Shown piece after piece: positions 1,206 to 5,655 of a stretch of 17,542 nucleotides of DNA. The notes below the pieces were generated by a model. It saw nothing but the letters and a program-made list of their open reading frames with translations. It had not been told where the DNA came from and ran no database searches. This stretch comes from Myxococcota bacterium (GTDB taxonomy: Bacteria; Myxococcota; UBA4151): assembly GCA_036338695.1 (NCBI GenBank), contig JAYZBQ010000069.1, forward strand, positions 1 through 17,542, written 5' to 3'. Numbering within the stretch: the first letter of the stretch is position 1; the number at the start of each line of letters is the position of its first letter. Made by a program: the position numbers and the translations under genes.

Positions 1206-1221
1206 CGGCACGAACCTTGCT
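1206..1221 (+). promoter_or_regulatory. Putative sigma54 (-24/-12) promoter for lpxC
   Basis: CGGCACGAACCTTGCT has GG(1207-1208)-N10-GC(1219-1220) and matches TGGCACG-N4-TTGCW except at the first base. It is intergenic and ~46 nt before the probable start codon. Confidence 0.6.
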
Positions 1222-2321: not shown

Positions 2322-3977
2322 ATGTCAGAAGAGACCCCCGCGTCGCCTACCGTCGAGGTAGAAGCACCTGCTAAACCCAAGCGCCGCACGCGCTCCAAAA
2401 AGGGAGCTGCCGGTGAGGGGGCTTCCGAGGCGGCGCCCAAGCCAGAGGCTTCCGAGGCTTCCAGCAAGCGGACCGAGGCGGCGGCTACGCCCGATGCGGC
2501 AGCCGCGTCATCAGGCGACGGCGGGAAGAGTGAGTCGGATCAAGGCGCCTCGGAGGGCGGTCGAGACCGAAACCGTCGCCGCAGCCGAAACAACCGCAAC
2601 AACCGAAGCCATGAAGGCAACCGCCGAGGGCGTCGTCGCCGTCGTCGAGGGGGCGGATTGCCGGAGATGGAGGACATCCAGCCCGACGCCGACCTGCCCG
2701 AGGTCGTCGCCACTGCCTGCGGTGAGCAGGTGGTGATGGCGCAAGTGCTTCAGATGAAGACGCGTGAGTTGACCAAGATGGCGAAGGACCTGAAGGTGGA
2801 GGACCCCGACGATTACCGTTGGGCCGAGCTGGTCGCGGTGGTTCTTGAGTCGCACTACGAGGCTGGCGGCCGCATTGCAGCCGATTGCGTGGTGGAGGTG
2901 CTCCCGGAGCGCTACGGCATGCTCCGGTTTCATCACAACGACTACACGCGCAGCGACTGGGATATCTACGTCTCGCCGAGTATGGTGCGCCGCTACAACC
3001 TGAAAACGGGTGACTCCATTAAGGGGTTCATTCGGCCTCCGAAGGAGGGCGAAAAGCTCTGGGCTTTGCTCAAGATTGAGGCGGTCACCGGCGATGATCC
3101 GTTGAGTAACCGCTTCAAGCTCGGGTTTGATAACCTGACGCCGCTTTACCCGGAGGAGCGCCTCCACCTCGAGACGCTGCCGGACGCGATGGCGAGCCGA
3201 ATTATCGATCTGCTCGTACCCATTGGCAAAGGTCAGCGCGCGCTGGTCGTTGCCCCGCCGCGAGCGGGGAAGACCGTGCTGCTTCAAGATTTGGCGCGCA
3301 GCGTCGCAACCAACCATCCCGAGGCGCACTTGATCGTCTTGTTGGTTGATGAGCGTCCCGAAGAGGTGACGGACATGGTCCGGTCGGTCCGGGGTGAGGT
3401 GATCTCATCGACCTTCGATGAGCCGGCTGCGCGCCACGTCCAGGTGGCCGAGATGGTGATTCAAAAGGCCAAGCGGCTGGTGGAACACAAGCAGGACGTC
3501 GTGATCTTGTTGGATTCGATCACCCGGTTGGCTCGCGCGTACAACCAGGTCGTCCCAGCCTCTGGCAAGATCCTGACGGGCGGTGTGGACTCCAACGCGC
3601 TGCAGAAGCCCAAGCGCTTTTTCGGCGCCGCACGGAACATCGAAGAGGGTGGCTCCCTGACCATCATTGCGACGGCGTTGATCGACACGGGCTCACGCAT
3701 GGACGAGGTGATCTTTGAGGAGTTCAAAGGCACCGGGAACTCAGAGATTCATCTGGACCGCAAGCTCATGGAGAAGCGGATCTTCCCGTGTCTCGACATC
3801 AACAAGAGCGCCACGCGTAAAGAGGAGCTGCTCATCGACGAGGTCAGCTTGAACCGTGTGTGGATTCTGCGGCAGCTGCTTCACCCGCTCAACGTGATCG
3901 ACTCGATGGAGTTCCTGCTGAGCAAGCTCAAGAGCACGAAGTCCAACCGAGAGTTCTTGGATTCGATGAATGGTTAA
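2322..3977 (+). CDS. rho: Transcription termination factor Rho with N-terminal low-complexity extension
   Basis: DIYVSPS..RR..LKTGD RNA-binding domain, PIGKGQR, P-loop [40 protein letters not shown] and FEEFKGTGN motifs. Confidence 0.98.
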
Positions 3978-4026
3978 TGCCTAATTTTTGGGCGGTGTGT
4001 GGTCACTCGTGTCGCTTGGTGGGTTG

Positions 4027-4039
4027 TAAGTCATTGAAA
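4027..4039. promoter_or_regulatory. Putative IHF binding site
   Basis: TAAGTCATTGAAA matches the reverse complement of the IHF consensus (YAANNNNTTGATW) with one mismatch. It lies 20 bp upstream of a sigma54 motif, the usual location. Confidence 0.55.
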
Positions 4040-4057
4040 ACGAAGCTTCATAGCGCA

Positions 4058-4074
4058 TTGGCACAGGCGTTGCG
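4058..4074 (+). promoter_or_regulatory. Sigma54 (-24/-12) promoter
   Basis: TTGGCACAGGCGTTGCG = TGGCAC-N5-TTGC, with GG 4060-4061 and GC 4072-4073 exactly 10 nt apart. Predicted +1 is near 4083-4085. Confidence 0.75.
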
Positions 4075-4124
4075 ACTTCTTAAGGTGAAGCTCGGCACTT
4101 TACCTATTTCAAACGGACTCGGGT

Positions 4125-4140
4125 ACACACACACACACAC
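4125..4140 (+). repeat. (AC)8 dinucleotide tract
   Basis: ACACACACACACACAC read directly. It is the only long simple repeat noticed in the window. Confidence 0.95.
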
Positions 4141-4151
4141 CGCTGAACTTC

Positions 4152-4189
4152 GACACTTTGAACCGGGTGACCGGTTCTTAGTGTTTTTT
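4152..4189 (+). terminator. Intrinsic terminator
   Basis: ACACT-TT-GAACCGG-GTGA(GNRA loop)-CCGGTTC-TT-AGTGT, running into T6 (4184-4189). Confidence 0.7.
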
Positions 4190-4203
4190 GAGCGAGCTTC
4201 TCG

Positions 4204-5655
4204 ATGACGACGCGCATTGTGATCTCAACGATACCGGGTGAGATGCGCGTGGCGCAGCTTGAGGACGCTCGCACTGTGGATCTGCAGGTTGAGCGCCGTC
4301 ACGAGCGATCGGGTGTTGGTAACATCTATCTGGGCACCGTGGCGCGCGTGCTGCCGGGGATGCAGGCGGCGTTTGTGGACATCGGCCTCGCTAAGGCGGG
4401 CTTCCTTTACGTCGCCGATCTAGCCGGTGATCATGACGAGGAGACGCGCTCGCGCATCGAAGATGTGATCCAGCCGGGCGACACGCTCTTGGTCCAGGTT
4501 CAGAAGGCGCCGATCTCGACCAAGGGGGCGCGGCTGACCTGCCAGATCAGCCTGCCGGGACGTCATCTGGTGATGATGCCGACGAGTGATCACATCGGGA
4601 TCAGCAGGCGACTCGAGGACGAGGCGGAGCGTGATCGGCTGCGCGACCTGATCCTGACGCACCGCTCGACAGCGGCGACGGGCTACATCGCACGAACCGC
4701 AGCGGACGGAGCGGACGAGCAGGCGATCCGCCGGGACATCGTCTTCCTCGATCGCCTCTGGAGGGTGATCCGAGAGACCATGAAGACCGCTGCGGTCCCG
4801 AGCTTGATCTGGGAAGATCTACCTCTTCACCTCCGGACACTACGGGACATCAGCTCCGACGGGCCGGTCGAGATCCTCTGTGATGACCCTGAGCTCTGTG
4901 AGGAGGTGACCGCCTTTTTGGCGCGGCTGGAACCGGAGCAGTCGATCGACGTGCACCTCTGGCGTGGCCGCGAGTCGATCTGGGATCATTTTGGCGTCGG
5001 TGACGAGATGCGGCGCGCACTGGGGCGGAAGGTGTGGCTCAAGTCGGGTGGCTCGATCATCATCGACCAGGCCGAGGCCTTGACCGCGATCGACATCAAC
5101 ACCGGCTCCTACGTGGGGCAGTCCAACCCGGCGGAGACGATCCTTCGAACCAACCTCGAGGCGATCCCCGAGATCGTTCATCAGCTGCGCTTACGAAATC
5201 TCGGTGGGATGATCATCATCGATTTTATCGATATGGAGGCCGAGGCACACCGTACGATGGTGACGGACGCGCTTGAACAAGCCCTCAAGCGCGACCCGGG
5301 GCGCACGCAAGTGCACGCCATGACAGGCTTGGGGTTGGTTGAGCTGACCCGCAAGCGGGTGCGAGAGAGCCTCGGTCGACAGCTGTCGGAGCCGTGCTTT
5401 TATTGCGACGGTCGGGGTGTACTCCAGAGCCGGCTGACGACCGCCTTTGAGGTGTTCCGAGATTTTGCCGTGCGGAGCACCGTGACCGACGCACCGGCGC
5501 TGGTGGCGAATGTTCACCCAGAGGTCCATGACCTCATCTTGGATCAGCTGCCTGAGTCGCTAGCCGAGCTGTCGGAGCGCCTCGGCAAGGAGCTGAGGGT
5601 GCAACCCAAGGGAAGCTACCATCTCGAGCAGTTTGACGTGTATGCAGCAAAGTAA
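4204..5655 (+). CDS. rng: Ribonuclease G (Rne/Rng family)
   Basis: S1 domain GNIYLG.V.RVLPGMQAAFVDIG, KGARLT, catalytic AIDINTG and GGMIIIDFIDM, Zn-link C..C.G (CFYCDG). 483 aa, with no RNase E C-terminal scaffold. Confidence 0.93.
   Translation: MTTRIVISTIPGEMRVAQLEDARTVDLQVERRHERSGVGNIYLGTVARVLPGMQAAFVDIGLAKAGFLYVADLAGDHDEETRSRIEDVIQPGDTLLVQVQKAPISTKGARLTCQISLPGRHLVMMPTSDHIGISRRLEDEAERDRLRDLILTHRSTAATGYIARTAADGADEQAIRRDIVFLDRLWRVIRETMKTAAVPSLIWEDLPLHLRTLRDISSDGPVEILCDDPELCEEVTAFLARLEPEQSIDVHLWRGRESIWDHFGVGDEMRRALGRKVWLKSGGSIIIDQAEALTAIDINTGSYVGQSNPAETILRTNLEAIPEIVHQLRLRNLGGMIIIDFIDMEAEAHRTMVTDALEQALKRDPGRTQVHAMTGLGLVELTRKRVRESLGRQLSEPCFYCDGRGVLQSRLTTAFEVFRDFAVRSTVTDAPALVANVHPEVHDLILDQLPESLAELSERLGKELRVQPKGSYHLEQFDVYAAK

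Follow-up and report, generated by a model that had tools for sequence, protein, structure and literature searches.

The DNA analyzed here, referred to as the window, is a stretch of 17,542 nucleotides from the genome of a Myxococcota bacterium (3.36 Mb; G000), which we compared with 60 relatives, five of them from the same family (G001-G005) and 55 sharing only the phylum. Its forward strand carries rho (2322-3977; above the cut-off of TIGR00767), followed by a gene for a ribonuclease of the Rne/Rng family (rng; 4204-5655) that scores above the cut-off of TIGR00757 and below that of the ribonuclease G model NF008689. Genes were called with a simple model, which yielded 2,791 genes in G000 and misplaced some starts, among them those of rho and rng. 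The Rho protein possesses a long low-complexity extension at its N-terminus (2322-2700), rich in Ala, Glu and Ser and then in Arg, Asn and Gly, reminiscent of insertion domains in Rho proteins that have been connected with phase separation. Four tRNA genes of ordinary appearance are clustered at the end of the contig (16947-17338).

Our in silico analysis indicates that the spacer between rho and rng very probably holds a genuine gene for a small RNA (sRNA). The predicted transcript of about 105 nt (4085-4189, forward strand; 98-107 nt in the full-length homologs) has its 5' end placed by the spacing of a σ54-type promoter. A previous sequence-only reading had proposed such a σ54-driven gene here, and all the motifs that it had listed for the spacer were recovered. 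The -24/-12 promoter box TGGCAC-N5-TTGC (4059-4073, forward strand) occurs once in the window against 0.03 matches expected, and TGGCA-N6-TTGC was found to be constant in 8/8 aligned homologs although the spacer bases vary, so that the conservation of the motif, which the reading had left to be checked, was borne out. The reading had also placed an IHF-like site at 4027-4039 (reverse strand), which matches 8/9 positions of the consensus WATCAANNNNTTR. What stands is its placement: the site lies at the same offset in all four genomes of genus g1, with 8/9 or 9/9 matches, and genus g2 has a 7-8/9 site closer to the promoter. By itself the match is not significant, as the window contains six such sites against 2.4 expected and that at 4027-4039 alone is not beyond chance. 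The rpoN gene is encoded in all six family genomes, and G000 encodes seven full σ54 enhancer-binding proteins and four IHF/HU proteins; together with the conservation and covariation of the locus, these genes support the proposal of a stand-alone σ54-type sRNA gene outside Rfam.

Upstream of these elements lies a palindrome of the type TGCCT-N7-AGGCA (3978-3994), a candidate site for a σ54 activator that was absent from the sequence-only reading. It is positioned 80-81 nt ahead of the -24 box in 7/7 homologs examined and is degenerate in G002, where the bases preceding it differ from the 3' end of rho. In a genome-wide scan of G000 with a matrix trained on the sRNA and lpxC sites, the palindrome at 3978-3994 ranked third. 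A separate matrix scan of G000 had uncovered a second palindrome upstream of lpxC (1082-1098), present in 6/6 family genomes, together with a σ54-type box GGCAY-N5-TTGC (1206-1220, forward strand), read from the sequences of all six genomes, and an accompanying IHF-like site (1166-1178). Judged by these shared elements, lpxC and the sRNA gene are likely to be under one common enhancer-binding protein and may be co-induced. Within the lpxC upstream region (1082-1220), several family genomes also possess an inverted repeat resembling GGACA...TGTCC after the palindrome. A third copy of the palindrome (G000:C74:1258-1274; L112) is found in four genomes near cutA and a glutamate-synthase-like gene, both named from their translations. 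No σ54 box was detected within 320 nt downstream of it on either strand, and hence the palindrome may not serve as a σ54 enhancer only. This copy is the best-scoring one and opens an AT-rich spacer of 300-400 nt near cutA (L112, L113, L121, L123) that has common short motifs and an IHF-like match, and no σ54 box, tRNA or Rfam match. At the 3' end of a gene for a GAF-domain σ54 activator on contig C30, we noted a weaker palindrome in G000 and G002, which is weak or absent in G004 and G005; in G001, the contig ends within this region. This weaker palindrome (G000:C30:20932, L128; also L226) precedes a σ54-like box by 93 nt in G000 and G002.

The region 4083-4189 folds with a z-score of -3.6, and we found no conserved small open reading frame or leader peptide across the homologs. 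Its fold is organized by a long-range stem, P1, in which positions 4087-4096 pair with 4142-4151; it begins 13-14 nt after the C of the -12 element in 9/9 homologs. All of the 72 cells of its nine pairs are paired across eight homologs (100%), three of the nine pairs change on both sides, none of 500 shuffles scored as high, and slid controls scored far lower. An unstructured middle part had been proposed for this RNA; the AC tract is indeed mostly unpaired, but the middle is closed by P1. The 8-bp hairpin that the reading had started at the predicted +1 (4083-4105) fared less well. It forms in the centroid fold of G000, but only 43.8% of its cells are paired in the eight homologs, a share that slid controls match, and it starts two bases ahead of the predicted +1 at about 4085. 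The intrinsic terminator (4152-4189; inner stem 4160-4177, T6 at 4184-4189) has 87.5% of its cells paired in the eight homologs, and 5 of its 13 pairs change on both sides; its stem is conserved and covaries, but the GNRA loop attributed to it varies among homologs. A search for stem covariation had been suggested for this locus, and the newly found P1 and the terminator display it; the 5' hairpin is not conserved. Since the eight sequences are few and kin, these counts are support, not a probability. As the single terminator-like site within 3900-4300, with a pair probability of 1.0 for its core stem in 6/6 read-through folds, the sRNA terminator probably also ends rho transcripts. The locus thus has the features by which trans-encoded sRNA genes are generally recognized: a promoter of its own and an intrinsic terminator, both situated in a spacer and kept in relatives, and a conserved covarying structure without a conserved open reading frame, the latter seen in eight related sequences.

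Within the loop closed by P1 lies the predicted pairing region (4114-4141, forward strand), composed of the seed CGGACUCGGG and an (AC)8 tract at 4125-4140. The latter is the sole AC run of at least 10 nt in the 3.36-Mb genome. In 9/9 homologs, the AC tract measures 10-17 nt and is largely unpaired; even copies that are nearly identical otherwise differ in its length, which is 12 nt in G005 but 10 nt in L072, and 15 nt in G001 but 17 nt in L068. The eight aligned homologs are invariant in the σ54 box, in ACUCGGG, in the cores of P1 and of the terminator, and in most of the AC tract. The invariant CUCGGG (4118-4123) is self-complementary when G-U pairs are permitted, which makes loop-loop dimerization conceivable.

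The σ54 box, the AC core, and the terminator are found upstream of rng in all six genomes of one Myxococcota family, i.e., G000 and 5/5 relatives. A covariance model, with which 25 candidates were scored per genome in 151 genomes, returned no full sRNA match outside the family; three weak non-family matches (E 0.001-0.26) were without AC core and σ54 box, and a second weak match in G000 (E 0.46) was terminator-like only. A strict promoter-plus-core pattern matched four times in 185,579 species genomes, each time before rng and in metagenome-assembled genomes titled Myxococcota or Myxococcales; these matches repeat known family sequences and therefore add no independent count. With a looser pattern, 20 metagenome matches were obtained. 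Four adjoin rho and/or rng; the other 16 lack such a context, and we took them as chance. A 15-nt pattern with one mismatch matched 147 of 301 genomes, yet control patterns also match many, and the promoter and terminator context was found in 0/30 inspected loci of this kind; we did not adopt these loci as a wider family. Rfam searches of the whole window at gathering score recovered tRNAs only, the region 3900-4300 gave no match at E<=10, and 11 loci, including five homolog loci, gave a single irrelevant snoRNA match (E 0.14). The covariance-model check that the reading had called for thus left the spacer outside the families of Rfam. We found no description of this RNA in the open-access literature, a search that mostly excludes subscription papers. 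Pieces approximately 96-99% identical to the window are present in one seawater RNA run, which provides weak evidence for a marine habitat of the lineage. In four RNA runs, 0 contigs extended over 3966-4204, which carries little information on expression, as the organism is present in one run at a depth of only about 2-6.

The sequence-only reading had suggested that the exposed AC tract might be a seed for GU-rich RNAs, and our analysis supports this idea and points to a specific predicted partner: the leader of an alternative sigma factor gene, which we regard as the target of the sRNA with a confidence only slightly below that placed in the sRNA gene itself. The site in question (G000:C56:37136-37163, minus strand) spans -45 to -18 relative to the start codon. 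When a 24-nt core was screened against 2,749 predicted leaders of G000, the sigma leader came first at -33.7 kcal/mol, followed by the next leader at -29.2; six base-shuffled cores reached -29.6 to -33.2 kcal/mol on their own best leaders. The core was extended by 5 nt to 29 nt after the target had been seen. For G000, the resulting -44.5 kcal/mol is therefore a post hoc value; the next leader reached -32.6. Genome-wide and on both strands, the sigma leader was the best of 15,012 scored windows (of 15,022) for the 29-nt core once the antisense of the sRNA itself was excluded, with the next at -34.8. Corrected for accessibility, its energy amounted to -25.4 kcal/mol against -19.0 for the next among 2,525 scored leaders (198 were unscored).

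Orthologs of the sigma factor (63-90% identity) are present in G001, G002, G004, and G005, and 4/4 of their leaders carry a GU tract and then the seed match; none was found in G003, whose assembly is 59% complete. Complementarity between the sRNA core and the sigma leader is therefore seen in 5/5 genomes holding both genes. The cognate duplexes of G001, G002, G004, and G005 attain -30.8, -31.4, -29.7, and -31.0 kcal/mol and are equalled by 0, 0, 1, and 0 leaders in a background of 1,707, which consists of a sample of 1,200 leaders of G000 together with 323 found in 400 kb of G004 and 184 in 241 kb of G001; as an independent test, these comparisons have small margins (e.g., -30.8 versus -30.7), mostly G000 backgrounds, and genomes that are kin. 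Dinucleotide shuffles reached the observed energies in 0-9 of 400 cases for the core and in 0-3 of 400 for the leader. One column is trans-compensatory: sRNA position 4116 and its partner form G-C in G000, G-U in G001, and A-U in G002 and G004. The duplex of G005 uses a shifted pairing register. Weak points of the pairing are a net energy of only -11.8 kcal/mol in G001 and of about +1 for the longest G004 duplex. The site was found in 0/25 leaders of more distant sigma orthologs, and it has the same range as the sRNA, neither being seen outside the family in these 25 loci and the 151 genomes. Counts of a short target pattern were not above those of controls.

Other potential targets are less well conserved. 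The functional link of the sRNA to rho or rng that its position had suggested is not borne out by pairing, as the duplexes predicted between the core and the leaders of these two genes are weak (-12.8 and -13.0 kcal/mol). The start region of a gene for a Clp-type ATPase pairs in G000 and G003, more weakly in G001, and not in G002, G004, and G005; the leader of C19:9653 pairs in G000 and G001 only. We rejected both as conserved targets, the conservation of these runners-up being confined to genus g1. Ortholog pairs within the top 5% of both genomes numbered 2/121 for G001 and 1/217 for G004. G000:C19:9653 (L261, L267) encodes a predicted exported protein. Its leader reaches about -27 kcal/mol with the sRNA in both G000 and G001 but does not pair in genus g2, and is a possible second target at the level of the genus. 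Upstream of the Clp-type ATPase gene (L260, L262-L266), 6/6 genomes have a hairpin and, after it, a U-tract at a distance of about 20-50 nt from the start codon, with a sequence that changes between genera; this hairpin could be a leader terminator or a thermosensor. Upstream of the main site, at about -80 to -45 (L134-L138), the sigma leader itself has another GU tract and a small hairpin, and some duplexes span both GU tracts.

The σ70-family sigma factor gene (G000:C56:35931-37118, minus strand) encodes regions 1.2, 2, 3, and 4, and a domain search gave no match to region 1.1. Its product lies below the cut-offs of the RpoD and RpoS models (TIGR02394, 241 bits against a cut-off of 379) and resembles solved chains of RpoD and of RpoS to about the same degree. 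In region 3.0, it has an Asp at a position that is occupied by Lys in RpoS and by Glu in RpoD. Alongside it, the genome encodes a long RpoD-like and an RpoH-sized paralog. Among its closest homologs, identity falls from at least 61% to about 40-46% outside a small cluster, and a search of viral contigs returned distant relatives only. From these sequence comparisons, we consider the protein a group-2-like sigma factor and do not call it RpoS. Upstream of the gene, no σ54 box or strong enhancer was found. A CRP/FNR-type site, TGTGA-N6-TCACT, is present at about -116 to -123 from the start codon in 5/5 genomes (L134-L138); the sigma gene may thus integrate a second signal at the level of transcription. 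In G004, the gene for the GAF-domain σ54 activator described above lies about 10 kb from the sigma gene on the same contig.

In all five sigma leaders, a hairpin covers the Shine-Dalgarno (SD) sequence GGAGG, at an opening cost of 5.7-10.0 kcal/mol compared to a median of 3.7 kcal/mol for 364 ordinary leaders. The sRNA seed overlaps the 5' arm of this hairpin and, in the best duplexes, reaches no further downstream than -18. Upon co-folding with the sRNA, the cost of opening the SD dropped in 5/5 genomes (7.2 to 2.5, 6.3 to 3.9, 9.1 to 4.3, 10.0 to 4.1, and 5.7 to 3.9 kcal/mol), to values near the median of the ordinary leaders. The RNAalifold covariation term for the sigma leader is unfavorable (+1.88). 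We searched five genomes, 85-94% complete, for Hfq, ProQ, and KhpA/B and found none, which would fit a long duplex formed without a chaperone. On these models, we lean towards a σ54-type sRNA that activates translation of the group-2-like sigma factor by opening the SD hairpin. An enhancer-binding protein, likely common to lpxC, would induce the sRNA; its exposed AC tract would start the pairing at the GU tract of the sigma leader, which is single-stranded; the CGRACUCGG seed, which resembles the SD-side strand of the mRNA itself, would then displace the SD hairpin by anti-antisense pairing, and translation of the sigma factor from the freed ribosome-binding site would rise. The length of the duplex would make an Hfq-type chaperone unnecessary.

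The main alternative concerns the direction of this regulation: the same pairing might repress the sigma factor, either because a ribosome standby site in the GU tract becomes covered or because the long duplex is cleaved. All of the pairing evidence applies equally to such an outcome, and the GU tract is the single-stranded stretch beside the occluded SD. Moreover, weak additional pairing takes the full-loop duplexes of genus g1 onto the SD side, for a further -3.5 to -4.3 kcal/mol or so, and RepG of Helicobacter pylori can repress or activate via a leader repeat (PMC8295292). The folding calculations depend on the leader chosen. With a leader starting at -90, SD unpairing falls on binding in G000, G001, and G002, and merely blocking the site hardly lowers the SD-to-AUG cost in a cruder calculation (7.9 to 7.3 kcal/mol in G000 and 8.3 to 7.4 in G001); the predicted direction therefore hinges on the 5' end of the sigma mRNA. 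Repression is nevertheless at odds with a seed that enters the anti-SD arm in 5/5 leaders and stops short of the SD in the best duplexes, and with opening costs of both SD and footprint that drop on co-folding in all five. Weighing the co-folding gain against the counter-calculations, we clearly favor activation and consider repression unlikely.

Explanations that dispense with a target are less probable still. The element could act in cis as a leader or attenuator, with a terminator that ends rho transcripts and a σ54 promoter whose main role is to drive rng via read-through. It is situated directly upstream of rng in 6/6 genomes, with no other terminator between rho and rng, and the rng start codon follows the T-tract by 14 nt in the window and by 14-25 nt across the family, which leaves scant space for a promoter of its own; rng may accordingly be expressed via read-through or from a promoter overlapping the sRNA terminator. 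The folds, however, contain no antiterminator to compete with the terminator core in any of the six genomes, there is no conserved leader peptide, and such a role would not explain why the best complementarity in the genome is to the leader of a distant sigma gene. We therefore judge a purely cis-acting role improbable, while some read-through into rng may accompany sRNA-mediated activation. Slightly less credit still can be given to the decoy that had been proposed for the AC tract, which we took as titrating an RNA-binding protein in the manner of CsrB, CrcZ, or GlmY, or Rho itself. The tract is exposed in 9/9 homologs, csrA is present in 5/5 genomes searched, and the gene adjoins rho. Decoys of the CsrB/RsmZ type carry multiple conserved GGA motifs in loops; the sRNA lacks these, as the number of GGA motifs in each RNA ranges from 0 to 4 and that of ANGGA does not exceed one, with none in G002. 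A CrcZ-type decoy was rejected because Hfq, the protein to be titrated, was found in 0/5 genomes; ProQ and KhpA/B were likewise not found. Furthermore, a decoy has no need to change in step with an mRNA leader. That the tract is a chance microsatellite next to an ordinary terminator is hardly credible: its variation between 10 and 17 nt is what slippage would give, but it is the only such AC run in the genome, the promoter and seed are invariant, P1 covaries, and the strict pattern is confined to its four occurrences before rng.

Activation by the sRNA might form part of a larger circuit, a chaperone-free RNA relay from σ54 to σ70 in which one enhancer-binding protein couples lpxC, the committed step of lipid A synthesis, to translation of the sigma factor, and slippage of the (AC)n tract on the sRNA tunes the gain, as in a mirror image of RepG. 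We regard this extended scheme as doubtful, and against the tuning stands the observation that the shorter tract of L072 pairs as well with the G005 leader as its longer counterpart does (-32.0 versus -31.0 kcal/mol).

If the activation model is correct, translational activation of an alternative sigma factor by an sRNA would have arisen again independently, in a deep Myxococcota lineage in which Hfq, ProQ, and KhpA/B were not found, with a σ54 enhancer in common with lpxC and a dinucleotide repeat as the toehold for pairing. In Myxococcota, targets have been assigned to few sRNAs. The impact is limited by the narrow range of six species-level genomes in one family. Since the pair of sRNA and leader is small and self-contained, it would be testable in Escherichia coli without culturing the organism.

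Several known systems share individual features with the one described here. In Borrelia, a transcriptional cascade connects σ54 to σS (PMC11109971). Other targets are reported for the candidate sRNA MXnc1 of Myxococcus xanthus in a preprint, which also describes M. xanthus as lacking Hfq (bioRxiv 10.1101/2025.09.11.675593). Closer at first sight is Pxr of M. xanthus (RF01812), a σ54-type sRNA of about 109 nt (PMC5684412; PMC11928866), which resembles the sRNA studied here in promoter type (by motif only), size, and phylum. Unlike Pxr, with its three stem-loops, our sRNA has one long-range stem and a terminator, and the adjacent pxrR and pxrK genes are absent; in five genomes, the RF01812 model gave no match at the sRNA locus and at best 19.3 bits elsewhere against a threshold of 80 bits. 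A σ54 activator also drives an sRNA tied to envelope synthesis in the QseF and GlmY/GlmZ system, where GlmZ activates by base-pairing (PMC6075780; PMC2267818). Compared with that system, the RNA studied here is without an Rfam match, has another target, and would combine the σ54-type promoter and the pairing in a single molecule. The σ54 regulator DVU2934 of Desulfovibrio vulgaris has lpxC as its only reported target and acts via a palindromic site (PMC3333781; PMC4641369). There too, in a bacterium of the delta group, lpxC combines a σ54 promoter and a palindrome for the activator; the palindrome described here differs from it in sequence. RepG resembles our sRNA in pairing with a leader via a simple repeat, with an outcome that is possibly dependent on repeat length (PMC8295292). 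Unlike with RepG, the length-variable repeat here is on the sRNA, is a dinucleotide, lies in an internal loop rather than a terminator loop, and is directed at a sigma factor.

The closest parallel in function is offered by DsrA, RprA, and ArcZ, which activate rpoS in E. coli (PMC10948607; PMC6537650; PMC2831331). Like them, the sRNA is trans-encoded and of similar size, and by prediction it pairs with the arm of a sigma factor leader that is inhibitory and thereby frees the ribosome-binding site. Unlike them, it has no Rfam similarity and a σ54-type promoter, occurs in genomes in which Hfq and ProQ were not found, and would pair over 22-28 nt built on a dinucleotide repeat; its target scores below the cut-off of the RpoS model and has a predicted leader of only about 60-70 nt, compared to 567 nt for rpoS. 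The sRNA is thus predicted to work as DsrA, RprA, and ArcZ do on rpoS, yet from outside those families.
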